Of a stretch of 64,000 bases of DNA, positions 1,769 to 64,000 are shown one piece after another; the stretch's first letter is position 1; each line of letters begins with the position of its first letter. A program made the translations under genes and the position numbers. Source of the DNA: Hadesarchaea archaeon (lineage in GTDB: Archaea > Hadarchaeota > Hadarchaeia > Hadarchaeales > Hadarchaeaceae); NCBI GenBank assembly GCA_030619825.1, contig JAUXAS010000001.1, positions 10,141-74,140 on the forward strand. Reading direction: 5' to 3'. The notes beneath the pieces were generated by a model. It searched no databases and was not told where the DNA came from. It saw nothing but the letters and a program-made list of their open reading frames with translations.

Positions 1769-1821
1769 ACATAATTAAGCTGTTGTTTAAATGTTCGGCG
1801 TAGCCACAACAAAACTGTTGA

Positions 1822-3643: not shown

Positions 3644-4665
3644 TGTATCACCAATGGTTGAAGATTTTCTGGCAGTTTATCAACATCGCTCGCCACGGCG
3701 GGGATTATCGGCGGCTGACCCCAATTCTCAAAAACCTCCCGCCCATACTCAGTTATCAACAATGTTATGAACTCGATTGCCAAATTCTCATTCGGCGCAT
3801 TCTTGGGTATAGTTATTCCATAGACGATAGGTTTGGCGGTAAACATTTTTTCGTTCGCAAGCCGCACCTTAACTTGTTTATAGATGTTTTCGTAGTCTAT
3901 GCTGGTTAGATTGATTCCATCGGGGAGCTCTACAAATCCAAATCCATGTTGGGCCGCGACGCTTCTGTATTCAAATGCGTAATCGATGCTGTGCGCTTCC
4001 AACTTGACAAGTAGGCTTACCGACTTATCTGAAATCTCCAGCTTATTGGTATTTGGATCCAAGTCCTCTGGCACCTTTATTAGATAATTGTCGTTTCCCT
4101 CAATCACCTCGATGTTGGTGTTGGCCACGATTAAATCATCAAAAATCGTGGAGTTATCATAGCGAATTTCTGCAAGCTGAAAAACCATTGCCGTGCGATA
4201 GCCGCAGGGATCAAGGTTAGGGTTGCCAAATCCAAACTTCACGCCAGTTCTATTGAGGATTTCATACCAATTGTTCTCGTTGATTTCATCTACATAATCG
4301 CTCTCGGCGGTATAGGCGAGCACCATTTCGTTACGTGCAAACTGGATATACCAATCCGCGTACTCAGGGAACATCATATTAGGAATTAGTGAGTAGTCCG
4401 CCGAGGCGAGGATGTCCGCAGCTTTATGAAGTTCAGTTATCTGCATAATGGCTTCTACACTGCCATGGGATTCAAGTTGCACGTCTACATCATGAGAGCT
4501 TTCGAATTGTTTTTCAATTTTCTCAAAGGGTACCGTAAGGCTACCAGCGTGGGAAATCTTCAGCACGCGTTTCCCCCCTATGGAAAATACGAGTACACCC
4601 AAGACGACGGCTATCGTTACCAGAGCGATAATGGTTTTTTCTGTGCCGATACTTTTCATACTCAT
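3640..4665 (-). CDS. wtpA: tungstate/molybdate substrate-binding protein (WtpA family)
   Basis: N-terminal TM/signal anchor, then LKISHAGSL (the archaeal WtpA xxHAGSL motif); first gene of the ABC operon. Confidence 0.75.
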   Translation of the reverse strand: MSMKSIGTEKTIIALVTIAVVLGVLVFSIGGKRVLKISHAGSLTVPFEKIEKQFESSHDVDVQLESHGSVEAIMQITELHKAADILASADYSLIPNMMFPEYADWYIQFARNEMVLAYTAESDYVDEINENNWYEILNRTGVKFGFGNPNLDPCGYRTAMVFQLAEIRYDNSTIFDDLIVANTNIEVIEGNDNYLIKVPEDLDPNTNKLEISDKSVSLLVKLEAHSIDYAFEYRSVAAQHGFGFVELPDGINLTSIDYENIYKQVKVRLANEKMFTAKPIVYGITIPKNAPNENLAIEFITLLITEYGREVFENWGQPPIIPAVASDVDKLPENLQPLVIQ

Positions 4666-4814
4666 ATTTCCCCTTTAGTTAACTAACATGCTTAAAAATT
4701 TTCCTTTTGTTAATCATTAAAGGTTATCAAACGAAAACGTTTTTCCCACTGTTCCTCACGCAAACTTATAATCACTGTCACCCACATTTCCTTGCAACAA
4801 AAGGAGTTGGAGAA

Positions 4815-5033
4815 GTGTACGGACCGAGAGAGCAAAGGGGACCACCTGCACCGGTGAACGTTGGCGATACCCACGACGTGAAGATCGAATCGAAGGGCAA
4901 AGGCGGAGATGGGATCGCCCACATTCAGGGCTTCGTGGTCTTTGTACCGGGCACGAATCCCGGGGATGAAGTAAAGGTCCGCATCAGTGCGGTGCGGCGA
5001 AGGTTTGCGGCAGCTGAAGTCGTTACGGAGTAA
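4815..5033 (+). CDS. TRAM domain protein
   Basis: GTG start 8 nt after an AAGGAG RBS; [38 protein letters not shown] is the conserved small archaeal TRAM (OB-fold) protein signature. The annotated longer ORF (4707) has an implausible N-terminus. Confidence 0.7.
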
Positions 5034-11210: not shown

Positions 11211-12467
11211 TTGCCTGAACTCAAACTCAAGCGCGGCGATGTGGTAATGCTCGAAGGGCAGCTCAGCCTCGAAGTAAGAGAAGGTGAGGTGTTGATAAGC
11301 GGCGGACTCCGTGGGAAGGGGAGCCGGACCGTCATACCTCGCGCGAAGTCGGTGCCCCTTGAAGCTGAAGGAGATGCACTCGTTGCATACACGCTTGGGC
11401 AGGACGGGAAGGTCGAGCAGCTATCGAAGCGGACTATTCCTCGCGAATGGGATGCGCTCATCTCGGAGGTCATCCAGCAAAGGCCCAAAAAAATATTAGT
11501 GATGGGAAGCGTCGATGTCGGCAAGAGCTTCTTCACAACCTACTTGGCAAACACCATGCTTAGGCATGGGCTTCGGCCGGGGGCGATTGATAGCGACGTG
11601 GGGCAATCTGATGTCGGCCCTCCGGCGACGATGGGGCTGGGAATCCTCGAGCAGCCCGTTGCCCAGCTCTACGAGGTCCCACTCTCGAGCGCTTACTTCG
11701 TGGGCTCGATGTCTCCCTCAGAGCACATGCTTGAGTTCGTCGTGGGGGTGAAGTGGTTGGTTGAACACGGTTTGAAGAAGGCGGACTCGGTAATCGTTAA
11801 CACCCCCGGCTGGATTTTCGGTGGCCCCGGTCGATCTCTTCAGCTTTATACCTTGGAGACGATTGACCCAGATATCGTGGTCGCTATCCAGCGCGAGGGG
11901 GAGCTCGAGCATCTGCTATCGAGCGTTCCTAGAGCGAGGGTAAGGCGGCTACCGGTTTCGAAGAAGGTCAGATCCCGCTCCTCCGGAGAGCGCGCGTCAC
12001 TGCGGGCGATGACGCTCGGGAAGTACTTTGAGGATGCTGGGAAGCTTGTCCTAAACTTGCGGAAGGTAAGACTCAAACGCTGCTACCTCCACACGGGCAG
12101 GCCCATCGATGTTGGAACGCTTGGGGTGAAGGCGCAAATAGTCCACGCGGAGCAGATGCCTGAGGGGATGTTAATTGTCATAAAAAGAAGGGTGGATAAG
12201 AGTGTAATTCAGGAGCTCGAGGCGAGATTCGGGCATGTGAGGACCATAATCCAAGGCAGCGAGCGAAACATGATGGTGGGATTGACGAACGATGCAAACG
12301 AGATGCTGGGCATAGGAATAATCGAGCGAATAGACTACGAACGAGGTCGGATGGTAGTGCTCACACCCGTCAAAAATGCGGACGAGGTCGCTGCCGTGCA
12401 GTTTGGCTCGATGCGGATAAAGCCGGACGGCGAAGAAATAGGCACCATAAGACAAGGCACATTCTGA
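11211..12467 (+). CDS. clp1: polynucleotide 5'-hydroxyl kinase Clp1/Grc3 family
   Basis: P-loop ILVMGSVDVGKSFFTTYLAN and Clp1-type GAIDSDVGQSDVGPP segment; TTG start. Confidence 0.7.
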   Translation: MPELKLKRGDVVMLEGQLSLEVREGEVLISGGLRGKGSRTVIPRAKSVPLEAEGDALVAYTLGQDGKVEQLSKRTIPREWDALISEVIQQRPKKILVMGSVDVGKSFFTTYLANTMLRHGLRPGAIDSDVGQSDVGPPATMGLGILEQPVAQLYEVPLSSAYFVGSMSPSEHMLEFVVGVKWLVEHGLKKADSVIVNTPGWIFGGPGRSLQLYTLETIDPDIVVAIQREGELEHLLSSVPRARVRRLPVSKKVRSRSSGERASLRAMTLGKYFEDAGKLVLNLRKVRLKRCYLHTGRPIDVGTLGVKAQIVHAEQMPEGMLIVIKRRVDKSVIQELEARFGHVRTIIQGSERNMMVGLTNDANEMLGIGIIERIDYERGRMVVLTPVKNADEVAAVQFGSMRIKPDGEEIGTIRQGTF

Positions 12468-12476
12468 GGTTCCATC

Positions 12477-12710
12477 GTGAAAATGCAGGCAAATGTTGTC
12501 TGTGGTTATAAAAAGCGAGAGGCTGCTAAAGCGATTGCCGCAGCGCTCCAGCCGGATAACCTCCAGGCCCCAAAAGGGGTTCGGGTGAGGACGGGGGTGG
12601 ATGACGCGCGCGTAACTACCTTGGTGGAGTTGGATGGTAGAATTGAGACGCTTTTGGCGACGCTCGACGATTTGCTAGCGTGCACTTCTACCGCTGAGGA
12701 CGTCCTATAG
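12477..12710 (+). CDS. Pcc1-family protein (second paralogue; candidate Pcc2-type KEOPS subunit)
   Basis: 77 aa; alignable over its whole length to Pcc1 (…ANVVcgykkREaAKAIaaALqPD…RIETLLATLDDLLACTSTAED), but distinct from the canonical pcc1 at 27402. Confidence 0.5.
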   Translation: MKMQANVVCGYKKREAAKAIAAALQPDNLQAPKGVRVRTGVDDARVTTLVELDGRIETLLATLDDLLACTSTAEDVL

Positions 12711-14001
12711 TTGCTCTTTTCTGACCTATTTTTTCGATCCCCATGTATGGTACCAATGCGGGCGGAACTAGGATTGAGCCATCTCTCTGCTGATAGTTTT
12801 CTAGGACGGATATCAAAACCCGTTCAGTGGCCACTAGTGTGCTATTTATAGTGTGAACAAATTTTGAAGGTTCACCTGATTTGTCTCTATATCTTATGTT
12901 TGATCTGATGGCTTGGTATGAAGTGCAATTGCTGCATGATGCCGCCTCTCGATATTTTCCCTGACCTGGCAGCCAAGTTTCAAGGTCGTATTTTTTCGCC
13001 GCTACCGTCCCCAGGTCGCCGCTGCAGACGTTTACTATTCTGTAAGGCAACCCAAGTTTTTGGGATATCTCTTCAGCGTTGGTAATCAATTCCTCGTGCC
13101 CCTTCCACGAGTCCTCAGGTTTACAGAAGACGAATTGTTCGACTTTCTCAAACTGATGAACCCGAAATATCCCTTTTGTATCTCTGCCGTGTGTTCCGGC
13201 CTCCTTCCTAAAACAGGGGCTCACCCCGCTATATCTAAGCGGCAAGTTCTTTCCATCCAGTGTCTCATCCATGTGTAATGCAAGCAGCGCGTGCTCAGAA
13301 GTAGCGAGCATGTAGAGGTCTTCCCCCTCGATTTTGTAGATGGTATCCTCGAAATCAGATAGAGCGACTGCCCCCTCGAGTGGTTTCCTCTTTAGCATGT
13401 AAGGCGGCTGAAATAGGGCAAACTCTTTTCTTGCGATAAAATCGAGTGCAAATTTTATTATAGCATAGTTTAACTGAACAAGTTCTCCCTTTAGGTAATA
13501 GAACCTCGCGCCAGCCACCCTAGCAGCTCGCTCAAGGTCGACTAGATCGAGGTTCAATGCGAGATCGATGTGATCTTTTGGTTTGAAGTCAAATTTAGGT
13601 ATCTCGCCCCACCTTCTTATTTCAACGTTGTCGTTTTCGTCCTTGCCTACGGGTACTGACTCGTGCATTAGATTTGGCAGATTGAGGAGTATATTATTAA
13701 TTGTTTTCCTGTAGTCTTGCACTTTTTGTTCGAGACGTTTTATTTTTAACGGGATTTCTTTCGCTTCTTTGGTTTTCTCCGTTACATCTTTGTTCTCTTT
13801 TTTAAGCCTTGCTATTTCCGCGGTGATTTTATTGCGCATTTCCCTCAATTTGTTTGTTTCTAGTGTCAACTTTCTCCAATTTTTATCGTATTCCAGTAGA
13901 TCGTCGACCCACTTTACTTTAGCTAGATCTCCCCGCTTGATCAAATCTGCTTTTACGAGGGCCGGATTTTTGCGCACAAATTTAAGATCAATCATTGCCA
14001 A
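12688..14001 (-). CDS. serS: seryl-tRNA synthetase
   Basis: N-terminal coiled-coil arm, class II motifs (FRVHQFEKVEQF, GLPYRIVNVCSGDLG). Confidence 0.9.
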   Translation of the reverse strand: MAMIDLKFVRKNPALVKADLIKRGDLAKVKWVDDLLEYDKNWRKLTLETNKLREMRNKITAEIARLKKENKDVTEKTKEAKEIPLKIKRLEQKVQDYRKTINNILLNLPNLMHESVPVGKDENDNVEIRRWGEIPKFDFKPKDHIDLALNLDLVDLERAARVAGARFYYLKGELVQLNYAIIKFALDFIARKEFALFQPPYMLKRKPLEGAVALSDFEDTIYKIEGEDLYMLATSEHALLALHMDETLDGKNLPLRYSGVSPCFRKEAGTHGRDTKGIFRVHQFEKVEQFVFCKPEDSWKGHEELITNAEEISQKLGLPYRIVNVCSGDLGTVAAKKYDLETWLPGQGKYREAASCSNCTSYQAIRSNIRYRDKSGEPSKFVHTINSTLVATERVLISVLENYQQRDGSILVPPALVPYMGIEKIGQKRATIGRPQR

Positions 14002-53133: not shown

Positions 53134-53547
53134 ATGCTACCGCGCGCCCTCCCCAAGCCCCAACTTATGGTTGATATAGCATTCGGCGAAGCTTTGGGCG
53201 TATTGTACATCATCTTCAGTTTGTCCCTAAGGGGAATCCAGTCAGAGGTCAACGCTTTATTCCTTGCGAGCTACGCACTGCTCGGTCTAGGTGCCCTTGT
53301 GCTTTACTTGGTTTTCAGCGCAAATCCAAATCTCGCACTTTTACTGCACATTTTTACATTCCCGCTGTTCAGTCTTTTCAACCTCTTCCTGAAGTGGGTG
53401 CCGGACGCGATAGGCAGGGGTGCAGATGTTCAGGTACTGTCCAGCCTCATCCTCGTTTACGTTTTACTCCTGTTGGCGTTCTTCGTCGTTCAGTCCATTT
53501 TGCGCACGCGGACGGCTGGTCGGATAGCAACTGTTCAACTTCCTTAG
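53134..53547 (+). CDS. integral membrane protein, unknown function
   Basis: 137 aa, four hydrophobic helices. Confidence 0.4.
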   Translation: MLPRALPKPQLMVDIAFGEALGVLYIIFSLSLRGIQSEVNALFLASYALLGLGALVLYLVFSANPNLALLLHIFTFPLFSLFNLFLKWVPDAIGRGADVQVLSSLILVYVLLLLAFFVVQSILRTRTAGRIATVQLP

Positions 53548-53656
53548 GTAATCGGAAGATTCTCGTGTTCCCAGAGACACCTCGGGAGCTCGTAAGGAAA
53601 TATTACATGTAACGTGCGGAAGAATAATATGACAAATAGGATATTTAGGTGATTCA

Positions 53657-54064
53657 ATGGATCTCCTTCAACTAATTCTGTTAGCAATGGTTGCACTGAC
53701 TTTAATTATTTCATTTCTTACATGGATAACCCAACAATCGGAACACCGTATAGGTCGCATAAAGTTTGATAAAGAATGGGCGAAAGGCCGACTTATTATG
53801 ATAAAAACCGAGTTAGAGGAAATAGCAAGCAAGCCAGAAGGATATGAGGGTAGATTATTAGCAAGGGTGGGGCAGGACAAATTATGGTGGCGCTCTCCGA
53901 TACTTTATGAACTTTCAGATATTGGTTATGTTCTGGGCCATATGGGTCTATTAGTCCCACGCACACTTATCTATACCATTCTAGAGAAAGATTTTTTCGA
54001 GAACACAGCTAAACTCCAAAAAGCGATAAACCAAATTGAAACACTGTTAAGAGAATTGAGTTAA
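53657..54064 (+). CDS. membrane-anchored hypothetical protein (low-GC island)
   Basis: N-terminal TM; the surrounding 53.56-54.13 kb is about 38% GC. Confidence 0.4.
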   Translation: MDLLQLILLAMVALTLIISFLTWITQQSEHRIGRIKFDKEWAKGRLIMIKTELEEIASKPEGYEGRLLARVGQDKLWWRSPILYELSDIGYVLGHMGLLVPRTLIYTILEKDFFENTAKLQKAINQIETLLRELS

Positions 54065-54144
54065 TTCTTTTATGGTTACGCCCAAAATTATTGGTTTCTC
54101 ACAACCACAAAAGGCGATTTTATTAGAGGGAGTAATTAATACTT

Positions 54145-54278
54145 GGTAGCCCCGTGGGGTAGACCAGCAGTGCTGGGCCTAAAGGCCAATCCTGGCGGAC
54201 GTCGTTAGGACCGCAATCTGGATCCGTCGACCCCGGTTCGAAATCGATTTAGCCGACGAAGTTCCGGGCGGGGCTACC
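54145..54278 (+). ncRNA. candidate structured non-coding element (paralogue 2), identity unknown
   Basis: 134 nt; 5' GGTAGCCCCG pairs with 3' CGGGGCTACC. The G-to-C change at helix position 9 relative to paralogue 1 is compensated on the 3' side. Shared TGGGGTAGACCAG and GACGAAGTTCCG blocks. Confidence 0.3.
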
Positions 54279-54561: not shown

Positions 54562-55137
54562 CTAAAATAACATCACGATGGACACGAGCAGGGGTACCTC
54601 AATTGCCGCCCACGCCGCGGGGCTCCACAAGAAGACTTTTTCTCCGTCTAGCGGTGGGAAGGGTAGCAAGTTGAAAAATGCTAGCCAGAGGTTAATAAGC
54701 GCGCCCCATAATCCTATATCGCCGATTAGGCCTGAGAAGTAACTCAAGGGGAAGAAGCAGCTGGCAATCACGATGTTCGTAGCCGGTCCTGCCAACCCGA
54801 TTAGCCCGCCCTGATGTCGGGTAAAATATGGCGATAAGATCATGACTGCCCCGGGAGCCGCGAACAAGAACCTGCCTCCGGAGGCTAAGCCGATCAGGAG
54901 CGCAAATGCTAAGCCCATCGTCCACATTCGGTAAACCGCGAAGTAGCCATATCGAACCGCAACAAATTTATGAGCGAGTTCGTGAGCGGTGAAGCCTAGG
55001 GCCAAAGGTATCGATATCACGGCAATCTGGTACCCTACATCCTCGAGAGGGAGAAATCCGATTCCTGAGACGGCAATCACAAGCGCAAGAACGGAGATCG
55101 AGATATGGCGCAACTCGATCTCGGTAAAACGGACCAT
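54562..55137 (-). CDS. site-2 protease family (M50) zinc metalloprotease
   Basis: HExxH in a TM helix (TAHELAHKFVA) and LDG motif (PFPPLDGEKV). Confidence 0.75.
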   Translation of the reverse strand: MVRFTEIELRHISISVLALVIAVSGIGFLPLEDVGYQIAVISIPLALGFTAHELAHKFVAVRYGYFAVYRMWTMGLAFALLIGLASGGRFLFAAPGAVMILSPYFTRHQGGLIGLAGPATNIVIASCFFPLSYFSGLIGDIGLWGALINLWLAFFNLLPFPPLDGEKVFLWSPAAWAAIEVPLLVSIVMLF

Positions 55138-55142
55138 TCAGG

Positions 55143-55337
55143 TCACGGTGATTCTTTAATGGTGAGTTTTCGCTTGAGGATGAGCTCAGCCGATCGAATG
55201 AGAGAACCACCGGCGCCTATTGCCCTAGCGGCTTGCCCCTTCGGCACGTAGACGACGAGCTCCTCCCCTTTTTCCTCAACTTTGTCTATCGGGACGTTCA
55301 GCATCTGCTTTAACTTTTCTAGCGTTTGTGCTTCCAC
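55143..55337 (-). CDS. small KH-domain RNA-binding protein
   Basis: IGAGGSLI GXXG loop; 64 aa. Confidence 0.45.
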   Translation of the reverse strand: MEAQTLEKLKQMLNVPIDKVEEKGEELVVYVPKGQAARAIGAGGSLIRSAELILKRKLTIKESP

Positions 55338-55451
55338 TTACTCAGCTCCACGTGAATTTTTCACAACCTCTTTAAAAAGTTTGCTAAATATCGAGATTCC
55401 CGCGAGCGAAATCGGGCTGACTTAGATCGCCCGAGTAGGAGCAGCAACACT

Positions 55452-56168
55452 CTAACTGACCCTATATTCCGCGCTCATCCTCCAACTCCCAGAAATCCCC
55501 CTGCTAAGCCGCTCATAGATGCCAGGCACGTGCCCAGCGCCCACCACGCATGCCACTTTGCCGGTGCTCGCGGACAGGAGCATCGCAACCCTCGAGGCCA
55601 TGTAGGCATCACGCTCCCTGATCAACACCTGGTAGGCGGTCGGTGAGGCCAGCTTCAGTTCGTGCAGCAAGTAAGTGACGATTTGGTCGTCGGTGAGCCG
55701 CTCAAGCTCCACGCGCTTTCCAAATGGAAGGAGGCCCAGCAGGAGCTCCGCGACCAGCCTGAGCCTTTCCCACCAGGGCATGCGATCGATGAGCCGTTGT
55801 AAAGTTATGCTGATGTCTCGGTCGATCAGCTCCACCCGTGCGCCGATCTTCTGAGCTTGCCTGATCGCGACCAACATCTCCTCTCCCGCCGGCATACCCG
55901 TCTGCCGCGAGAACTTTTTCTGGAGGAGGTAGAGCAGGCTGTTGAGCAGTGATAGTTTGACCCCCCCGGCGCGCATGACTTCAAGTATGCTCGGTCGTTT
56001 GAGGCCACGGGTGAGCGCTAGGTAGCGAGTGGGACATAGTTCAACAGCGACGATATCAGGTTTCTCCTCCGCGATGACGTGTCCGACTTCCACCGTGCTC
56101 TTCGGCAGCACGTGTGCGACGCCTATGAGGAAGAGACGGTCATCCAGCTTTTTTAGCACCCTTTCCAC
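55452..56168 (-). CDS. TraB/PrgY family protein
   Basis: LIGVAHVLPKS N-terminal motif and the GAGH region of the TraB family. Start placed at the internal GTG so the overlap with the upstream reductase gene is only ~28 nt; the annotated TTG at 56270 overlaps 130 nt. Confidence 0.6.
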   Translation of the reverse strand: MERVLKKLDDRLFLIGVAHVLPKSTVEVGHVIAEEKPDIVAVELCPTRYLALTRGLKRPSILEVMRAGGVKLSLLNSLLYLLQKKFSRQTGMPAGEEMLVAIRQAQKIGARVELIDRDISITLQRLIDRMPWWERLRLVAELLLGLLPFGKRVELERLTDDQIVTYLLHELKLASPTAYQVLIRERDAYMASRVAMLLSASTGKVACVVGAGHVPGIYERLSRGISGSWRMSAEYRVS

Positions 56169-56817
56169 CCTTAACCTGGTAGGTGAGGAGGAGGTTTTTA
56201 CCAACTTTTGTGACCTTCTTGAGTTCGAGTCCAACTCCCCTTCGGACCTCGCCAAAACCCGCGCCGCCAACTAATGTTTTCGCCGTGGTCCCACCCACTA
56301 TTCGCGGGGCTACTGCCACCCGAACTTCATCGACCAAACCTTTATTGAGCATGCTCCAGTTGAGGGTCGAGCCGCCCTCGAGCAGGAGCTTGCGCACTCC
56401 CGCCGAGCGAAGTTTTTCGAGCAGCCTGTGCAGGTTCACCTCCTTTTCACCAGCGACGATGATCTTCGCGCCTGTCGCGCACAGCTTCTGTAGCCTTCGC
56501 TTCGAGGCGTTTTTAGTCGAAGCGATAACCGTAGGGGCTGAGTTGTCGAGGACCTTGGCGTCTAGAGGAGTTTTGGCGAAGCTGTCGATGACGACCCTTG
56601 TGGGGCTCTTGCCTCGCGCCCGTCGCACGGTCAGCGATGGGTTGTCGGCCAGTACCGTGCCAACGCCCACCATAACAGCATCGACGCTTGCACGGAGCTT
56701 GTGGACGCGGTCGAGGTCGGCCTCGCACGAGATTCGGCTGTCACCGGCAATGGTCGCGATCTTGCCGTCGAGCGTCATCGCGGCGTTGAGGATCACGTAG
56801 GGACGGGTCATCGGCAT
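56140..56817 (-). CDS. ribD: diaminohydroxyphosphoribosylaminopyrimidine reductase (RibD C-terminal domain type; archaeal riboflavin pathway)
   Basis: RPYVILNAAMTLDGKIA and GGSTLNWSML DHFR-like reductase motifs. Confidence 0.8.
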   Translation of the reverse strand: MPMTRPYVILNAAMTLDGKIATIAGDSRISCEADLDRVHKLRASVDAVMVGVGTVLADNPSLTVRRARGKSPTRVVIDSFAKTPLDAKVLDNSAPTVIASTKNASKRRLQKLCATGAKIIVAGEKEVNLHRLLEKLRSAGVRKLLLEGGSTLNWSMLNKGLVDEVRVAVAPRIVGGTTAKTLVGGAGFGEVRRGVGLELKKVTKVGKNLLLTYQVKGGKGAKKAG

Positions 56818-56864
56818 GCCAAACGAAATCTTGTCCCCCAGCTCTTAAGTCGTTTGCAAGGGAG

Positions 56865-56956
56865 GGGCCAGGGCCGGGATTTGAACCCGACTCACGGGAT
56901 ATCTGCGAGAGGACTCGCCACAGTCCCGGATGTTAACCAGACTACACTACCCTGGC
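56865..56956 (-). tRNA. tRNA-His(GUG) with encoded G-1 and a 17-nt intron at 37/38
   Basis: Minus-strand cloverleaf: G-1 + GCCAGGG acceptor, D arm GUGU/ACAU, anticodon stem CGGGA/UCCCG, loop CU-GUG-G[intron CGAGTCCTCTCGCAGAT]A, T arm UCGGG-UUCAAAU-CCCGG, discriminator C. Confidence 0.75.
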
Positions 56957-57014
56957 CACATCTAAAAATTAGTGAGGCTTGTATTTAGGCTTGCTTTGTC
57001 GCGAGGTCCGGCGT

Positions 57015-57221
57015 CTAAGTGGGTTCTTCCCCAGGCTTTTCCTCTTCCTCTTTCTCCGCTGTTTCGATGCGTTCGCGTATGAACTGATACACGAGCTCTG
57101 AAACTCGGTCGCGAAGTTCATCGTCCTTCTCGAAGCGCTTGAAATAATCGTCCTTGAGCCAGTTCCAGCCGTGGGGTTTCCTCACTTTGAATGTTATCTC
57201 GGCCATGTCATCCTCCGCCAA
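57015..57221 (-). CDS. small acidic hypothetical protein
   Basis: 68 aa; first gene after tRNA-His in the low-GC island; repeat R1 lies ~25 nt upstream of its ATG. Confidence 0.3.
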   Translation of the reverse strand: MAEDDMAEITFKVRKPHGWNWLKDDYFKRFEKDDELRDRVSELVYQFIRERIETAEKEEEEKPGEEPT

Positions 57222-57243
57222 TAACTGGGGATAACCATTATGT

Positions 57244-57312
57244 AAAACCTCTGGTGCGATATTAGAAGTTTGAACCTAGATTTGTCCTCCAGAACCTTCC
57301 CGGAAAATCACC
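57244..57312 (-). repeat. intergenic repeat R1 (tRNA-3'-half-like, ~65 nt)
   Basis: About 75% identical to R2/R3; minus-strand reading …CAAATCTAGGTTCAAACTTCTAATATCGCACCAGAGG. Confidence 0.5.
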
Positions 57313-57461
57313 TCTAAAAATGCCCAGACTGCTTTTGAATGCCTGTGGTGCGGGGGATGGGAATGAAACTCCGATTCGAACCTCTCGGCCTCATTTTCTG
57401 CAATTATTGTGCAAAGCCCCGGGTGAGAAAAATAAAAATCCTTTTGCGACATTGTGATGAT

Positions 57462-58097
57462 TCAGACCAAGAGTGGCGCGAATTTATAGATGAAGATGAT
57501 TCCAAAGCCAAGCAATGTACACCCACATGCGACTAGAATGGCTTTGTAGCTCCTTGTGCCTATCAGCCACTTCCCTTTCGCCACTGAGTACGAGACGAGC
57601 GAGAACCAGCTTAGGTCGGCGAGAAAATGTCCAGCCAACCAAAACCCAACTCCGGCTAAGGCCGCCACCAAATATGCCTGCATGAGCATCACCACGCCGA
57701 TCGTCGTCCACCAGAGGAAGACGCTTGGATTCAAAATTGTGCTGAAAAGTACACCCCCTACAATAGGATGATGTTTCAATTCCGCACTTGGTCGGGGCTC
57801 CGTGATCTTTCCGATCCGTGAGAGGTTGAATGCCCCGAATATCAAGAGCAATATACCTCCTAGGACGCCAACCACGGCTTGGAAACCCTGCTCCCTTAGC
57901 AGGTAACCAAGGCCCAGGGCGACGAGTAGAAGTATCCCAAGCTCGACCATGATATGGCCAATTGCAGCAAAGGTACCAGTCCTAGCGTCGCTGGATAATG
58001 TCTTCGTCGTGACATACGCCAACATGGGGCCAGGTATTAGGGCTCCGGATAGCGCTATAACAAAACCAATTGGAAACTGAGCTATTGCTTCGATCAT
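57462..58097 (-). CDS. LysE/RhtB family amino-acid exporter
   Basis: Six-TM LysE-type topology, ~210 aa. Confidence 0.8.
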   Translation of the reverse strand: MIEAIAQFPIGFVIALSGALIPGPMLAYVTTKTLSSDARTGTFAAIGHIMVELGILLLVALGLGYLLREQGFQAVVGVLGGILLLIFGAFNLSRIGKITEPRPSAELKHHPIVGGVLFSTILNPSVFLWWTTIGVVMLMQAYLVAALAGVGFWLAGHFLADLSWFSLVSYSVAKGKWLIGTRSYKAILVACGCTLLGFGIIFIYKFAPLLV

Positions 58098-58166
58098 TTA
58101 ATCCCAAGCTTGCTGGTGGTTGCAATTTTAAAAATCTCTGGTTTGAAACGTAATAGTGCGCCGGCA

Positions 58167-58238
58167 TTTTTAACCTATGGTGCGGTATCAAGGGTTTGAA
58201 CCTAAATTTGTACCTTCCAAAACCCTTTCGGAAATCAC
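58167..58238 (-). repeat. intergenic repeat R2
   Basis: Minus-strand reading GTGATTTCCGAAAGGGTTTTGGAAGGTACAAATTTAGGTTCAAACCCTTGATACCGCACCATAGGTTAAAAATG; has a T-arm-like GGTTCAAACC and a …CGCACCA 3' end; ~70 nt upstream of the LysE ATG. Confidence 0.5.
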
Positions 58239-58263
58239 TTCAAAATCTAGCTAATTTTGCCTT

Positions 58264-59025
58264 TCACGATTTATGTGCTTTTACTTTGACACTTGTGATT
58301 TTTCCAGCCAATCTGTCATCTAACCCAGGTTCACAAAATGTGTTCTGAGAAACAATATTGACATCTCTAAACCCTGCTTTCTTTATTGTGTCTAAATACT
58401 CTTTTTTCTTTAATGCTCCGGCAATACATCCAGCCCAAGCCTCAAAGTTTTTTCTAATGTCTTCTGGTAATTCACCCTCTGTAACTAAATCGGAAATCAA
58501 AATTCTTCCACCCGGTTTTAAAACTCTGCACGCTTCTTGATATGTTCGTAATTTATCTGGAGAAAGATTGATGACGCAGTTACTGATAATTACATCAACC
58601 GAGTTATCTTCAAGAGGCAAATTTTCAATTTCTCCAACTCTGAATTCCACATTTTTATATCCATAGTTTTTTGCTATTTCATTGGCTCTTTTAACCATTT
58701 CTTCCGTCATATCAATTCCAACAACGTGGCCCCCTGATCCTACTTTATTTGCAGCCAAAAATACATCAATTCCTGCACCCGCCCCCAAATCCAAGACCGT
58801 TTCTCCTTTTTTCAAATCCGCTAATGCTGTTGGGTTGCCACACCCCAAACCCATGATAGCAGATTCCGGGATGTTTCCAAGTTCGTCTTCAGAATAACCG
58901 ATATTTTTCGCTTGTTCCATTACATTAATTCCGCATGGACCACAAGTAGGGCAACAACTGGTGCCTTCTTTAGCTATTTTTGAATATCTTTTCCTAACAA
59001 TTTTTTTAATTTTTTCTTTTTGCAT
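58264..59025 (-). CDS. arsM: arsenite S-adenosylmethionine methyltransferase (ArsM)
   Basis: Conserved Cys cluster CCPTCGPCG, MGLGCGNPTA, SAM motif VLDLGAGAGIDVF, SNCVINLSPDK. Confidence 0.8.
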   Translation of the reverse strand: MQKEKIKKIVRKRYSKIAKEGTSCCPTCGPCGINVMEQAKNIGYSEDELGNIPESAIMGLGCGNPTALADLKKGETVLDLGAGAGIDVFLAANKVGSGGHVVGIDMTEEMVKRANEIAKNYGYKNVEFRVGEIENLPLEDNSVDVIISNCVINLSPDKLRTYQEACRVLKPGGRILISDLVTEGELPEDIRKNFEAWAGCIAGALKKKEYLDTIKKAGFRDVNIVSQNTFCEPGLDDRLAGKITSVKVKAHKS

Positions 59026-59066
59026 TTTTTAACCTCTATCTTTTCATTTCAAATATGTGCGTCAGC

Positions 59067-59125
59067 CATTTTTAACCTGTGGGTGGTATTAGGGTTTGAA
59101 CCCAAATTTGTACTCATAACCCAAA
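59067..59125 (-). repeat. intergenic repeat R3
   Basis: Minus-strand reading …GTACAAATTTGGGTTCAAACCCTAATACCACCCACAGGTTAAAAATGG; immediately upstream of arsM. Confidence 0.5.
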
Positions 59126-59198
59126 ATACCATTATCTTAAGAAAAAGGTATTAGATCCTACTAGGTAGATAATAAGGAACTTTGAAGAGGATCATTTT

Positions 59199-59906
59199 AT
59201 GGGAAAAAGATTCGTAAGTGTTGGTCTAAATGACACGTTCACTAAAATTTGGAGCCTTAGGAATAACATAAGACCATTTGTGCACGAGGGAGAATGGACT
59301 AAAAGAGAATGGGCGAGAGGAAGAAACGAATACCTAACTTTCCTGATAAAAATTGATAGCGAAGAGATAGTGGAGAGGATAAGAGATGTCCAAAAGAAAC
59401 TTTCCATTGCCTCGTGCATAGATCCGTTTCCAAGGGAGTACTTTCACATCAGCGTGAAAGGCGGAGGTTTTCTGGTTGGAACTAGAAAATCCAGTGATGA
59501 AATTAATAGGGAGAATGTCGCAAAAATTATGAGCCAAGCCTGTAAAACGTTAGAAGATGTAAAACCATTTAGAGTCTGGCTGAAAAGGCTGAATATTTTT
59601 TCGGATGTAGTTTTCGTGGAAGTTCATGATAGTACCATCAAGAAGATGCATAAATTGCTAAAAGAGCGAATAAATTTTCTTGGTAGTTTTAGGTACGAAG
59701 GAGACTCGTTTATCCCACATTTGAGCATCTGCGGATTCAAAAATGAAAAAGAGTTTGGTAAATTGTTGAAGATACTGGAAAAACTCAGAAATACTTCGTT
59801 CGGTGTTTTTGAGGTAGACTCTTTGGATTTAGTAGTTGCGCACCTTAATCACAAATATCCTATCTTAGAAACTATTCATGTTTATCCACTATTGTCCCCT
59901 AGGTAA
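59199..59906 (+). CDS. 2H phosphoesterase superfamily protein (LigT/2',5'-RNA ligase-like)
   Basis: Two H-x-S/T-x motifs about 80 aa apart (HISVKGGG, HLSICGF). Confidence 0.55.
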   Translation: MGKRFVSVGLNDTFTKIWSLRNNIRPFVHEGEWTKREWARGRNEYLTFLIKIDSEEIVERIRDVQKKLSIASCIDPFPREYFHISVKGGGFLVGTRKSSDEINRENVAKIMSQACKTLEDVKPFRVWLKRLNIFSDVVFVEVHDSTIKKMHKLLKERINFLGSFRYEGDSFIPHLSICGFKNEKEFGKLLKILEKLRNTSFGVFEVDSLDLVVAHLNHKYPILETIHVYPLLSPR

Positions 59907-60008
59907 CCCTTCAGATGCAGTTATTTCCGGAAAACTCCGTAGAAAATGTTCGGATTATCTCTGAAGAACCTAGTGATTCAAATTAAGGCGTCTTCGATAT
60001 CTTGTAAG

Positions 60009-60854
60009 TCAAAAAGCAGAGGAACTAATTTTTGAGGATATCAGAAGGAATTTTCGATGCCATGGAGATGTTTTTCCTTTCAGTTCTATCTGGTGATATC
60101 TTAGGTCATTTTCTATGTCTGTAAAAGTGATAAACTGCGCGGGCGAAAACCCAGCTTTTCTAACCATCCCTTGCGCCTCCTCTTTACTGAAAGAAGCATG
60201 GGTTTCCTTCATCTCCATGTCTTCCATCGGGCTGTTAAAAGACCAAGTCTTCGACACAAAATCCTGTAAATCCCTCCTTTCAATCTCATACAAACCTTTT
60301 CCGAGCTTTTTTATCCAGACACTTCGGAGGAGAAACTTGGACTTGAACTCCAACAAAAGCTGCTCGGTAGGATTAGGAACTTCGATGATGACCCGGCCCT
60401 CTCCGGGATCTATGTGATCGAGCAGGAAGTACCTGCCGTCTGGCTTGAGGGCGTCCCATATCGCGCGAAGTATTTCGCTCATCTGATGGATTGTACCAAA
60501 TTGTTTCACCTCATGTAACATCTGCGAGGTCAGCACGACATCAAACTCCTCGTGAAATTTGAGTTCTTCAGCTTTCGCGCGGATCAATTTTGTATTGGGG
60601 CAGTTTTTCGAAGCATCCTCAAGTCGCTCCTCATTTTCATCGACCCCGACGAGCTTCGGCACGTCTCTGGCGAGCCCCTTGAGTATTTGACCTGAACCGC
60701 AACCGATTTCCAAAAGTGAATCCACGGGCCCCAGCTGGCTGCGAATCGCCTTAACCTTCTCCCTGTTGTATCTGGCCCATCTTTTTTCCATCTTGCTTAA
60801 AAACTCGGCTTCTTCAGGAGAATAAAGCGCGCGCTCTGGATTAACTTGCGACAT
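60009..60854 (-). CDS. class I SAM-dependent methyltransferase
   Basis: Motif I LEIGCGSGQI, motif post-I VGVDENE, LKPDGRYFL. Confidence 0.7.
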   Translation of the reverse strand: MSQVNPERALYSPEEAEFLSKMEKRWARYNREKVKAIRSQLGPVDSLLEIGCGSGQILKGLARDVPKLVGVDENEERLEDASKNCPNTKLIRAKAEELKFHEEFDVVLTSQMLHEVKQFGTIHQMSEILRAIWDALKPDGRYFLLDHIDPGEGRVIIEVPNPTEQLLLEFKSKFLLRSVWIKKLGKGLYEIERRDLQDFVSKTWSFNSPMEDMEMKETHASFSKEEAQGMVRKAGFSPAQFITFTDIENDLRYHQIELKGKTSPWHRKFLLISSKISSSAF

Positions 60855-60989
60855 ATGATTTCACCAAATAAAACATCAGTTATCGCAGTATTAATGAAGC
60901 TATCACATGAACGTGACATTTCGTGTGCCATGAAACCTGATTTAAGTAATTTCAACATTTCGCTGGCAGTAACCCAAAGTTATAGAATT

Positions 60990-62120
60990 TTATTTGAACA
61001 ACGCGTACAAAACCAAGGCAGACCCGACGAGGAAGATACACCCGAATGCAAAAACTGATGGATACCCCGCGAAAGAGATCACAAGACCGGAGAGCCAAGG
61101 ACCGACACTCCCGCCGAGCGTTATGCCGACGGATTCCACGATTGAGATATCCCTCCCAAGCTGCGTTGAAACCCGCCTATAAAAGTGTGGTAACGCGCTG
61201 GCAGCGATGCAATGGGCAAATTCGGCTAGGAAAAGCGCCAGAATTATTAATGGCAGAAATCCCACGAGACCTGCGGAAAGGAAAAGCAATCCGCTTAGAG
61301 ATATGCCGATATAGCAAATTCTCCTAAAATCGTGTCTATCGGTTAACCCTCCCGACAAGAAACCCAAAATGCTTCCGATGTACTGAACCCCCATCACAAC
61401 GCCGACCAGGGTATATGGCAATAAAAGTTCGTTCTTGAGATATAGTGGAAGAGCGAAAACGAGCAGGCTGCTTAAGCCCACTGCATACATGAATCTATGG
61501 AGGATGAACCCCGTGAAGATTTTCGTGAACTTCGGTTTAAACGAGAATTTTTGCGGTTTCACCTTTTCCCCGCTGAGAAAAGCAATTGGCAAAAGTGAGA
61601 TTAGCCCGATGAAGGAGCAAATCAGGAACGAATATCCGAACCCAAATGAATCCACAAATACACCTGCCAAAAACACTCCCGCTGAACCTCCGATGGTCAT
61701 GGATGCGCCGAAGAACCCGTAGCTTCGCCCCATCTCTCGTCTAAATTTTTCGATTACGAAGATCTTTCCAAAAGTCCAAGGAGACCTTCGAGTAGCCATA
61801 TAGAAAAGAATCACAAACAGGGCGAGGAAGAAGAACGGTGGCAAGGCTGCGGCGATGAGGCTTGATAGCACGACGAAAAGACCAAACACTACGAGATAAA
61901 ATTTTCTGCCTATGAGGTCGGAATGAACAAATAACGTGATAAATACAACTGTCGATAGAGCGGTTCCAATTATAAAGACATTTCCGAGCTGGATCTCCGA
62001 GAAACCCACAGAATTGAGGTAAAGCGGAAATAGGAAGCCCATCATCCACGTGGCCATGGACAAAAAGATCCAATGGATTGAAAGCAGGGTTTTCATGCCT
62101 GTCAATTTTCCACCTCGCAT
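60990..62120 (-). CDS. MFS transporter
   Basis: 12-TM MFS topology with an MFS loop motif (DLIGRKF); the start is likely the internal ATG (MKTLLS). Confidence 0.75.
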   Translation of the reverse strand: MRGGKLTGMKTLLSIHWIFLSMATWMMGFLFPLYLNSVGFSEIQLGNVFIIGTALSTVVFITLFVHSDLIGRKFYLVVFGLFVVLSSLIAAALPPFFFLALFVILFYMATRRSPWTFGKIFVIEKFRREMGRSYGFFGASMTIGGSAGVFLAGVFVDSFGFGYSFLICSFIGLISLLPIAFLSGEKVKPQKFSFKPKFTKIFTGFILHRFMYAVGLSSLLVFALPLYLKNELLLPYTLVGVVMGVQYIGSILGFLSGGLTDRHDFRRICYIGISLSGLLFLSAGLVGFLPLIILALFLAEFAHCIAASALPHFYRRVSTQLGRDISIVESVGITLGGSVGPWLSGLVISFAGYPSVFAFGCIFLVGSALVLYALFK

Positions 62121-62185
62121 CGATTAGCTCTACTACGATGAAAAGATTAAAGTTACGCCGGCAAAAGCCATGAGCAGGTAGTGCT

Positions 62186-62599
62186 ATGGCAAGTTGCATA
62201 TTTTGTAAAATTGCAGAAGGCGAAGTAGAGTCTTGGATAGTTTATGAAGATGAGTTAGTCAAAGCTTTTTTTGATATCAATCCTGCAAGCGAGGGACATA
62301 CTTTAATTATTCCTAAGAAACATTATGAAAACATCTATGAAATCCCCGAAAATGTGCTTGAAAGAATAATTATTGTTACAAAGAAACTTGCCATAATTTA
62401 CAAAAAAGCACTTGATGTAAAAGCTGTAAATATTTTGCATGCTTCTGGAAAAGAAGCTCAACAAGACGTTTTTCATTTTCATATTCATCTTGTACCGAGA
62501 TATAAGAATGACAGGTTAAATTTGTGGTATCAATCACAACCTGAAGTTAAAGCAAATTTTGGCAAGATTTTAGAAAAAACAAGGAAATTTATAGATTAG
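62186..62599 (+). CDS. HIT (histidine triad) family hydrolase
   Basis: CIFCKI N-terminus and HFHIHLVPR histidine triad. Confidence 0.85.
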   Translation: MASCIFCKIAEGEVESWIVYEDELVKAFFDINPASEGHTLIIPKKHYENIYEIPENVLERIIIVTKKLAIIYKKALDVKAVNILHASGKEAQQDVFHFHIHLVPRYKNDRLNLWYQSQPEVKANFGKILEKTRKFID

Positions 62600-62649
62600 C
62601 GGAGCCTCGCCCCACCTTTTGTTATAATATTTTCTCTTCATTTGCAACG

Positions 62650-63372
62650 TTATTTTAAAGCTACGAAAAGCGCGAGGCGGTACCATTTCCAAACACACTC
62701 GGCCAGCGAAAACCCTGCTTCCCTTAACCATCCGATTTGCTCATCTACGGTAGCTGGCATATCCCTCTGGCTAGCCCTAAGTTCCCTGTCTTTTTGTTTA
62801 ACTTGTTCGAGAGTTCTTTCGATACCTAGGATATCTTTGGCACGCTGTTGGATTATTTTGCACCATATATCTTCGTACTTTTCTTCAAAAACATCATATC
62901 TCGATTTTACCAGGTCGCCCAAAAGGAAGTAGCCGTTCTGCTCCAGCATCCTATAGATTTGTTTGTACAGAGTTCTTTTGTATCTATCCTGTATGTGGTG
63001 GATCGCGAATAAAGAGGCGACGACATTAAAACTACCCAATGACTTATTCCATCCTCTCTTGCTAAAATCTCTCACTTGGAATGAAACCCTGTCCAAATGA
63101 CTCTTTAATCTTGTCTTGGCAATTTTCAGCATTTCCTTGGCACCGTCAACGCATGTTACAATAGCCTCAGGATACGCCTTCAGTATTTTCTCAGTTAGAA
63201 ATCCAGTCCCAGCCCCCAAATCTAATACAGAAATTTTGGCATCTTTTTTGCAAGGGAACATATTAACAATCGCTTCAGCTATTTCTTCTCTCTTCGGATT
63301 GACAACAAACTGATGTTTATCGTACCATGCCGCCGTTTTCTTCAGATCATAATACGCCTTCCAACTACTCAT
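62650..63372 (-). CDS. class I SAM-dependent methyltransferase
   Basis: VLDLGAGTGFLT motif I, CVDGAKEM post-I. Confidence 0.7.
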   Translation of the reverse strand: MSSWKAYYDLKKTAAWYDKHQFVVNPKREEIAEAIVNMFPCKKDAKISVLDLGAGTGFLTEKILKAYPEAIVTCVDGAKEMLKIAKTRLKSHLDRVSFQVRDFSKRGWNKSLGSFNVVASLFAIHHIQDRYKRTLYKQIYRMLEQNGYFLLGDLVKSRYDVFEEKYEDIWCKIIQQRAKDILGIERTLEQVKQKDRELRASQRDMPATVDEQIGWLREAGFSLAECVWKWYRLALFVALK

Positions 63373-63460
63373 ACTGACCCCTTAAAGACACTATTTTAAA
63401 AACCATCCCTATTTACTTAAGCCTCTAAACTTGCCTTTTGCGGACGGATGTTCTCACTTC

Positions 63461-64000
63461 TCATCTTCCTTTAATTGATTCGGCGATCAATCTGATGAAT
63501 TCTTCACGCCGTTTGCTAGGTACGCCTCCTCCCGCGGCGTAGGGATGTCCTCCTCCTTCCCCTCCAAGCTCTCGACAAACCTTCCCAACTACTTTGCCTA
63601 GATCAATAGGCACATCCCATCTCCTAATGGCAAACACAACTTTTCCTTTTTCATCCCAAGCTTCGCTCATTACCATTGCGACCTTATTCCTCCTTGAAAG
63701 TTTCTCAGCTATTAACCCACCAAAGCCGTGTGTTTCCTTTAGGTAGATCGCGGAAAACGTAGGAGTCACTTGTACCCCTGCTTTCTTTGCTGTTTTCAGA
63801 ACCTGTTCAAACTTCTTTTTGCCTTCATGCCCTTCTTTGATCACATCCGGTATTTGGTTAATCCTCAAACCCCTAGCCAACAGCTTGGCAACACGGATCT
63901 TGAAATCATCATCAGTTATCTTGTGGCGAAGTGCAAAAGTGAAAAGTTCTGCTTCCTCGCGATATTTCGGAACGTCAATAAGGTAATCGCACTGGGCGCC
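63461..64000 (-). CDS. DHH-family protein, C-terminal DHHA1 part (N-terminus beyond window end)
   Basis: GGEGGGHPYAAGG DHHA1 motif; the reading frame stays open upstream of the annotated TTG (…DYLIDVPKYREEAELFTFALRHKITDDDFKIRVAKL…) to the window edge. Confidence 0.6.
   Translation of the reverse strand, partial: GAQCDYLIDVPKYREEAELFTFALRHKITDDDFKIRVAKLLARGLRINQIPDVIKEGHEGKKKFEQVLKTAKKAGVQVTPTFSAIYLKETHGFGGLIAEKLSRRNKVAMVMSEAWDEKGKVVFAIRRWDVPIDLGKVVGKVCRELGGEGGGHPYAAGGGVPSKRREEFIRLIAESIKGR

Follow-up and report, generated by a model that had tools for sequence, protein, structure and literature searches.

What are the short repeats that stand beside a tRNA-His gene where the GC content of an archaeal chromosome abruptly drops, and how might they be related to the accessory genes among which they lie? 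The question is raised by a 64,000 nt stretch of the Hadesarchaea archaeon assembly GCA_030619825.1 (contig JAUXAS010000001.1, positions 10,141 to 74,140 of the forward strand), the whole of which is called the window below; loci fetched for comparison carry L numbers. The window is archaeal, and its aldehyde:ferredoxin oxidoreductase has 95% identity to a protein labelled as from a Hadesarchaea metagenome-assembled genome (MAG). Hadarchaeota are uncultured archaea of the subsurface, and no description of their mobile elements was found in the literature searched. The answer we favour, with a probability of about 80%, is that the repeats are attachment (att) site junctions of a tandem array of small integrated gene cassettes, with a tRNA-Leu gene past the right end of the window as its anchor.

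The core of the repeat, ACAAATYTRGGTTCAAAC, occurs exactly three times in the window, always on the minus strand (57268-57285, 58194-58211 and 59094-59111), while shuffled sequences give an expectation of 0.18 matches and none of 100 shuffles reached four. The three full blocks that surround the cores, called type A, share pairwise identities of 0.66–0.76 across ~70 nt, so the triplicated element described in the first-pass annotation is real, and a fourth, relic block can be added to it. The CCA ends of copies 1, 2 and 3 lie 45, 80 and 54 nt upstream of the ATG codons of an open reading frame (ORF68), a LysE-family gene and an ArsM-like gene, respectively. The features of this part of the window are:

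56864-56956, minus strand: tRNA-His(GUG) with an intron (Rfam tRNA, 44.8 bits; ARAGORN, intron option)
57015-57221, minus strand: ORF68, without a Pfam family, GC 0.51, in the flank past the last att repeat and present in L025
57252-57345, minus strand: 'empty' unit, made up of a relic left arm (57325-57345, CAGGCATTCAAAAGCAGTCTG...) and type-A block copy 1
57252-57324, minus strand: type-A block copy 1, ending TCGCACCA (nhmmer E = 1e-16)
57346-57392, minus strand: fourth, GC-richer degenerate tRNA-Leu 3' block (GGTTCGAATC...CCCCGCACCA), the right end of the LysE cassette
57462-58097, minus strand: LysE-family exporter (Pfam LysE, 1.9e-23), cargo of cassette 2
58150-58177, minus strand: left (P') arm of the LysE cassette, TAGGTTAAAAATGCCGGCGCACTATTACG
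58178-58247, minus strand: type-A block copy 2, ending CCGCACCA (nhmmer E = 6e-17), which closes the ArsM cassette on the right and joins it to the LysE cassette
58264-59025, minus strand: ArsM-like arsenite methyltransferase (Pfam), GC 0.375, cargo of cassette 3
59050-59079, minus strand: left (P') arm and leader of the ArsM cassette, CAGGTTAAAAATGGCTGACGCACATATTTG
59080-59148, minus strand: type-A block copy 3, with a damaged core in which CCACCCA takes the place of CCGCACCA (nhmmer E = 7.5e-10)

Alignment of the repeat blocks with tRNA-Leu covers the stretch from its anticodon loop to the CCA end, with an extra insertion of ~18 nt in the repeats, and the window copies are therefore derivatives of tRNA-Leu and not of tRNA-His, in keeping with the earlier remark that they look like tRNA 3' halves but do not match tRNA-His. 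The closest ArsM homologues (89–92% identical) are encoded in L001 and L002/L003, where an intact tRNA-Leu(UAG) directly precedes them. In L001, L002 and L055 this tRNA ends CCCCCGCACCA and is followed by the arm and leader seen after window copy 3, the sequence beyond its CCA (TAGGTCAAAAATGGCTGGCGCACATAT...GATAGAGGTTAAAAAATG) being the same; in all three, ArsM, a type-A block and core genes come next. Downstream of ArsM in L001 and L002 come an AT-rich element that equals window copy 2 and then the L18e-L13-S9-RpoN operon, ArsM forming a single-gene islet of 0.37 GC in a background of 0.57 GC. An intact tRNA stands at the proximal end of the array in L001, L002, L006, L010, L055 and L025 (Rfam, 43.9 bits, for the last), and the arrays of relatives are headed by tRNA-Leu(UAG) or tRNA-Leu(GAG). 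ARAGORN isotypes obtained with the intron option at array heads (Val, Ile, Pyl and Ser) were unreliable, and the calls used were Leu(UAG), Leu(CAA), Leu(GAG) and the Rfam hit.

The role of tRNA-His is a different one. It is the sole tRNA found in the window by ARAGORN and Rfam, the array lies on its 5' side, and its ortholog in L055 is situated downstream of the tRNA-Leu(UAG)-ArsM array. Judged from the sequence, it is the distal (chromosomal) edge of the array and not the integration target, and a role for it as the integration site must be given up. As no tRNA-Leu is seen in the window, the head of the array should be past position 64,000; by analogy with L025, this head would be a tRNA-Leu gene, with or without an integrase-bearing element.

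Two observations on the ArsM islets may be added here. Immediately upstream of tRNA-Leu(UAG) is a conserved ORF of ~70 aa with four CxxC-type cysteine pairs (zinc-ribbon-like; L001 9613-9825, L002 9618-9830), which the gene caller missed in L002. Among 120 ArsM homologues, proteins 70–92% identical to that of the window carry the labels of many archaeal lineages (Micrarchaeota, Bathyarchaeia, Freyarchaeota, Hadesarchaea and Geothermarchaeales) and of one Zixibacteria MAG, which suggests that the ArsM gene has been widely spread by horizontal transfer.

Near-identical strains differ exactly at the repeats. The sequence of L025 is 98.6% identical to window positions 55000-59082 and then diverges, while that of L043 is 98.8% identical to 57744-59119 and then continues into other cassettes; the BLAST breakpoints, 59082 and 59119, both fall inside copy 3, and LysE of either locus is 99% identical to that of the window. 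The region had been read as a genomic island, and comparison with these relatives supports an island of variable content, giving a break at copy 3 in each. On its left, the ArsM cassette adjoins a different neighbour in each of five contigs, with every join at CCGCACCA/YAGG, and by type these neighbours are two type-A blocks, one type-B block, an integrase block and a true tRNA-Leu. What stands before the cassette is a GC-rich tRNA-Leu fragment (the integrase block) in L025, a further type-A block with cassettes of other content in L043, a third block type in L048, and a true tRNA-Leu(UAG) in L055, where tRNA-His lies ~1.3 kb downstream. At the opposite end, the stretch homologous to L048, L033 and L055 ends at 58174/58175, just past CCGCACCATAGG, and CCGCACCA/YAGG is present at both of its ends. 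An empty site is seen in L006, which has the same tRNA-Leu(UAG) and the same locus-specific type-A variant beside L18e, without ArsM, whereas the site is occupied in L001. The presence/absence polymorphism has its breakpoints at the att core, and genes have been gained and lost between strains at the cassette boundaries.

A degenerate pattern built from five copies was searched in GTDB species-representative genomes, IMG/VR and metagenomes. The repeats are present well beyond this contig: 17 GTDB loci matched, 15 of them in Hadarchaeota/Hadesarchaea MAGs, together with 68 metagenome loci. The GTDB matches outside Hadarchaeota were a 2.3-kb 'Heimdallarchaeota' contig and one probable chance match in an Acidobacteriota genome. 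No IMG/VR viral contig matched the pattern, and there is therefore no evidence for a known virus that carries the site. The 2.3-kb contig (L018; JBHIFL010000203.1, labelled Candidatus Heimdallarchaeota, 2,286 bp) holds a type-A block and DNA 93% identical to window positions 62113-62599 (the HIT gene and its upstream sequence), and was probably misbinned, or else reflects a very recent transfer; apart from it the family is restricted to Hadarchaeota.

An nhmmer profile of the block gave 122 hits, which represent at least 84 distinct copies, and mean column identity across 70 aligned type-A copies is 87%, with GGGTACAAATCTGGGTTCAAACCCCTAATACCGCACCA as the minimal conserved part. Three kinds of sequence follow the CCA of a block: the arm TAGGTYAAAAATGGCYGGCGCA and cargo, another unit (tandem 'empty' units, ~95 nt apart), or unique chromosomal sequence. 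A cassette, 0.64–2.7 kb long, is composed of the left arm TAGGTYAAAAATGGCYGGCGCA (~25 nt; 29 distinct cassettes show it after the CCA), one accessory gene or two, of either orientation, and a degenerate, AT-rich tRNA-Leu block of ~40–70 nt (type A), the 5' limit of which differs between cassettes. Distances between the sites of 59 adjacent pairs are bimodal, being either 79–121 nt (11 pairs) or 641–5095 nt (48 pairs, 43 of which are below 2.5 kb), and none lies in the interval from 130 to 600 nt, so that a unit comprises one gene or two. Their cargo includes ArsM, LysE, GNAT, radical SAM/SPASM, AAA_14, PEMT/ICMT, SAM methyltransferase, HIT and 2H proteins, and mobility genes are absent from it. 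Of the 27 cassettes with a callable ORF, 15 carry their cargo forward and 12 in reverse.

The order found at 57252-57392, a tRNA-like end followed by an empty unit, recurs elsewhere in the 11 site pairs that are 79–121 nt apart. The 57346-57392 block looks like a relic of an integrase-type block, and similar non-type-A blocks occur in L004, L007, L012, L019, L020, L043 and L048. Two or three empty units of ~95 nt without cargo stand in tandem in L032 (2032-2297), L075 (3079-3269) and L017 (5820-5997). A crossover at the anticodon loop of the empty unit was considered and rejected, because loaded cassettes have a conserved left arm of their own, unlike that of the empty unit.

In sister strains, an integrase gene that contains its own att site stands at the head of the array. 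At 12706-13614 of L025 lies the gene for a tyrosine recombinase of 302 aa (Phage_integrase, 1.7e-11; archaeal Phage_integr_3, PF16795; SAM-like N-terminal domain), which is found also in L043 and L048 and, truncated, in L033. Its codons 1-19 (VVRGTGFEPANPYGTSPSS) are the reverse complement of a 55-nt tRNA-Leu block, which recurs unchanged between the anticodon loop and the CCA of an intact tRNA-Leu(GAG) 1.5 kb away in L025. The integrase lies on the strand opposite to the head fragment of the ArsM cassette, and that fragment is the integrase 5' end. Homologues of the protein form a large archaeal family (897 hits); 32 of the top 120 have G[FIL]EP near the N-terminus, which is the reverse translation of a tRNA T-arm, and several start MVRGxGFEP. 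Going by these sequence features, the L025 integrase has the arrangement known from SSV-type integrases, with att inside the ORF. A hidden Markov model (HMM) built from 120 homologues found no integrase of this family encoded in the window, in agreement with the first-pass annotation; one of an unrelated recombinase family may be present.

The cassette arms are relics of the same gene. Translated in the integrase frame, the type-A block gives MVRY*GFEPRFVPSR on its complementary strand (* being a stop codon). A second type of arm, TTCTCAAAATGCCGAATGAGCA, encodes (M)PKFCSFGILRMVR, the N-terminal extension of the integrase, and homology to it is seen in the common cassette arm and in that of the empty unit, both of which contain stop codons. 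Every junction thus preserves, as a fossil, the 5' region of an integrase gene across attP. These N-terminal relics stand apart from integrase bodies. Since the type-A copies share the insertion, an AT-rich acceptor part and the stop codon, they descend from one pseudogenised ancestor, which later spread with many cargos.

Fragments resembling the integrase C-terminus were also observed (L025 13753-13872, L043 8813-8923, L048 3078-3158, L068 1886-2443 and L082 5653-6210), adjoining the intact integrase or sitting in other arrays, and look like remains of earlier integrase-bearing elements. Weak matches to the integrase HMM (E 1e-7 to 7e-6) were given by larger ORFs beside tRNA-like array heads (L073 1351-2757 and L064 4789-7218), which may belong to another family of recombinases acting at these sites.

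Read 5' to 3' along the minus strand, the window leads from a mosaic of older or rearranged cargo (in the order DHHA1, which may or may not belong to it, MT240, HIT, MFS, MT281 and 2H) through copy 3, the ArsM cassette, copy 2, the LysE cassette, the 57346-57392 block, the empty unit with copy 1 and ORF68 to tRNA-His and the core genes. The genes beyond copy 3, all assigned by Pfam and with the identities proposed in the first-pass annotation, are:

59199-59906, plus strand: 2H phosphoesterase
60009-60854, minus strand: methyltransferase MT281
60990-62120, minus strand: MFS transporter
62186-62599, plus strand: HIT hydrolase
62650-63372, minus strand: methyltransferase MT240
63461-64000, minus strand: C-terminal part of a DHH/DHHA1 protein (Pfam DHHA1, 3e-12; GC 0.46), the gene being cut by the end of the window

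The stretch from 59199 to 63372 is a mosaic of accessory genes without a recognisable att site; a search for further sites in 59.1–64 kb gave only non-significant traces at 59907-59974 (E 0.3–0.4). The 59.2–64 kb segment is not at the corresponding position in L025, nor is the head region of L025 in the window. The 2H, MT281, MFS and HIT genes recur in other orders in L089-L091, L042, L018 and L069, and several of them adjoin type-A blocks there. No homolog of the DHH/DHHA1 protein was present in any locus fetched for comparison, and an exact-protein look-up of MT240 was without a match.

The first-pass annotation had described a low-GC island past tRNA-His. The fall itself is there, from 0.542 over positions 1-56865 to 0.43 overall beyond tRNA-His, and it is located at this gene because tRNA-His is the distal boundary of the array. 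It is not uniform, however, as the GC of individual genes ranges from 0.31 to 0.51, against 0.54 for the remainder: HIT 0.309, ArsM 0.375, 2H 0.377, MT240 0.418, MT281 0.467, MFS 0.469, LysE 0.511 and ORF68 0.512. This unevenness favours several separate acquisitions. Elsewhere in the window, a second low-GC patch (0.41–0.46) at 53250-54250, with plus-strand ORFs at 53134-53547 and 53657-54064, lies within the 0.55-GC core, is shared with L025, and has no adjoining type-A block or tRNA. GC is also lowered (0.47) at 1000-5000 and 12000-14000, and a match to the repeat core with three mismatches, probably a chance one, is found at the edge of the latter stretch (13976-13993, plus strand).

How such an array could be built can be outlined as follows. 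A tyrosine integrase like that of SSV, the gene for which starts within the tRNA-Leu block, would insert elements either at the tRNA itself or at whichever junctions are already there, by recombination at or beside CCGCACCA/YAGG. Cassettes inserted in this way would stack, and older ones would be displaced toward tRNA-His. The cassettes, which lack an integrase, would be non-autonomous derivatives, with arms that are what remains of a pseudogenised integrase 5' end, and would be moved in trans by an integrase or exchanged by recombination between their common arms. Catalysis by the integrase, the position of the crossover and activity at the present day are the conditional parts of this scheme. 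Taken further, the cassettes could form a dedicated, actively trans-mobilised system in Hadarchaeota, integron-like but made of other parts, in which an SSV-type integrase captures, stacks and reshuffles them at tRNA-Leu genes across the genome, with turnover of accessory genes between strains as the outcome; this we put forward tentatively, as somewhat less than an even chance.

Several observations weigh against an integrase-built cassette array. The window holds neither an integrase of the L025 family nor an intact tRNA-Leu, and the integrase adjoins cassettes in only four of ~85 loci, all of them versions of one ArsM locus; from most others it is absent within the flanking sequence at hand. 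Copy 3, with its mutated core, is probably dead. Between 59.2 and 64 kb there are no att sites, so a cassette origin of these genes rests only on the shuffled gene orders seen in other contigs. The empty units of ~95 nt are too small for excised circles, which calls for some other source, for example unequal crossing-over or loss of cargo. Equal shuffling could, moreover, come about without an integrase, through homologous recombination from one conserved arm to another.

The same junctions might also be passive scars, left by many independent, full-size, integrase-bearing elements that entered at tRNA-Leu and each decayed to one or two genes, the small units never having moved. Tandem integration and later loss of the integrase are known in archaea (PMC8371274), the arms are pseudogenised integrase 5' ends, integrase C-terminal fragments survive in the five loci listed above, and the core of copy 3 is damaged. 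Independent decay, however, would yield degenerate sequences that differ from one another, whereas at least 84 copies have the insertion, the AT-rich acceptor part and the stop codon in common at 87% column identity; the identical ArsM unit, with its own arms, occurs in five contexts with exact boundaries, and unit sizes show a sharp floor near 640 nt. The descent of the type-A blocks from a single ancestor therefore favours movement of small units over independent decay of full elements, and passive scarring is in our judgement unlikely. The first-pass suggestion of relic att sites from serial integrations thus named the right class of site, but copies 2 and 3, as members of this large conserved family with many cargos, are more than products of decay. 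A tRNA-derived transposon, comparable to miniature inverted-repeat transposable elements (MITEs) or short interspersed nuclear elements (SINEs) and inserting by itself at many sites, would account for the many copies per genome, some in tandem ~95 nt apart. It would not account for the fact that an element follows a tRNA or tRNA-like CCA end in 31 of the 59 adjacent site pairs and another element in the rest, or that all copies of an array have one orientation. Beyond the common CCGCACCA core, no terminal inverted repeats or target-site duplications were seen, and no copies were seen inserted with target-site duplications within unrelated genes or intergenic regions; such a transposon can for practical purposes be set aside.

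Two further explanations, both foreshadowed by the promoter or small RNA (sRNA) module of the first-pass annotation, look to expression of the repeat. As a duplicated promoter or 5'-leader module, the arm would supply its TATA-like TTAAAAAT as an archaeal TATA box for the downstream gene, and it is true that all three window copies are 45–80 nt upstream of co-oriented genes and that a GAGGT motif stands 7 nt ahead of the ArsM start codon, an ATG. With cargo reversed in 12 of 27 cassettes, start codons at distances of 11–236 nt, the same block terminating arrays beside core genes or other units, and LysE having its own TATA-like TTTTTAAAAT ~30 nt from its ATG, we regard a promoter function as very improbable. 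The likeness to tRNA-Leu, which extends from the anticodon loop to the encoded CCA, might instead point to a functional tRNA-like RNA: the 3' half of a split tRNA, an sRNA, or a signal for processing or punctuation. A GGG/CCC hairpin does show some two-sided changes (11 cells) and a covariation exceeded by 7 of 500 shuffles, but it pairs in 88.6% of cells against 86.6% after shuffling, pairing is just as good in slid registers, and for related sequences the tool's stated false-positive range includes the shuffle result; across three hairpins on the 70 aligned copies, 7 to 185 of 500 shuffles reached the observed covariation. Rfam, at E ≤ 10 over 56800-59300 and at the gathering threshold over the whole window, found only tRNA-His, and ARAGORN made no call on the repeats. 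For six units the fold z-scores lay between -1.9 and +0.8, and no structure was shared by them; the block lacks its acceptor-side partner and has a variable 5' limit. A split-tRNA half is contradicted by the poor pairing of the T-stem and by the additional ~18-nt insertion, no search for a 5' half having been made. An RNA role is thus scarcely credible, and the att junctions of a cassette array at tRNA-Leu remain the explanation that we prefer.

The arrays have some likeness to integrons, which have been reported also in Archaea. As in integrons, cassettes that are mostly single genes of ~0.6–1.2 kb are split by a recombination site, new cassettes appear beside the primary site, and a divergent integrase stands at the array head (L025, L043 and L048). 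Unlike integrons, the primary site is a tRNA gene, and the recombination site is derived from a tRNA, is conserved in primary sequence (at the 87% given above) and has no stable fold, so that it is not an attC hairpin; the cassettes are not co-oriented, and the integrase, with its archaeal PF16795 signature, is beside only the few loci mentioned. Membership of the integrons was rejected, as neither an attC-type fold, nor co-orientation, nor regular linkage to an integrase was found.

Integration into the 3' part of tRNA genes, att sites inside integrase ORFs, tandem integration and integrase loss are established in archaea (PMC8371274). With the 'suicidal' SSV-type integrases (SSV1, pT26-2/TKV; PMC8371274, PMC7253208) the present system shares a tyrosine recombinase whose ORF contains an att site corresponding to the tRNA from the anticodon loop to the 3' end, and direct repeats of a tRNA fragment as the trace of integration (PMC8371274). 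It differs in that most units are of 0.64–1.2 kb, with a single gene, no integrase and one family of pseudogenised att arms. The att block is, moreover, at the extreme 5' end of the integrase gene, unlike in SSV-type elements, and integration therefore removes only the start region. The tycheposons of Prochlorococcus (10.1101/2020.12.28.424599) are tRNA-anchored islands in which successive integrations push older elements inward, and here too partial tRNAs and integrase fragments are scattered and the accessory cargo is niche-adaptive; tycheposons, however, are bacterial, several kb long, usually with their own integrase and often with replication genes, whereas the Hadarchaeota units are mostly single genes without a mobility gene. 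Among cis-mobilizable elements (CIMEs), formed by site-specific accretion in the Streptococcus ICESt1/3 family, att-bounded elements without an integrase are known (PMC5704250), and serial integration has been described for the tandem ssrA islands of Dehalococcoides (PMC3146451). Both resemble the present arrays in having integrase-less elements in tandem with integrase-bearing ones at one chromosomal site, and their mobilisation by the integrase of a neighbour is like the one proposed for the present cassettes, but they are bacterial, much larger, and need conjugation or other transfer, and they do not include a many-member family of single genes with one arm. In the literature searched, no description was found of Hadarchaeota tRNA-Leu arrays of integrase-less single-gene cassettes with a common pseudogenised arm. 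Island-building by serial integration at tRNA genes is thus already known, and it is the integrase-less, mostly single-gene cassette form that we rate as a new variant.

For Hadarchaeota, the locus shows how accessory functions, among them arsenic methylation, exporters and methyltransferases, come and go gene by gene at tRNA-Leu genes, the breakpoints being resolved to the single nucleotide. The conserved GGGTACAAATCTGGGTTCAAACCCCTAATACCGCACCA provides a sequence tag for flexible regions in Hadarchaeota MAGs and for misbinned contigs. If the cassettes are indeed mobilised in trans, they would represent a second, independently evolved cassette-array solution alongside integrons, and would offer a case in which the non-autonomous descendants of the 'suicidal' archaeal integrases can be studied.

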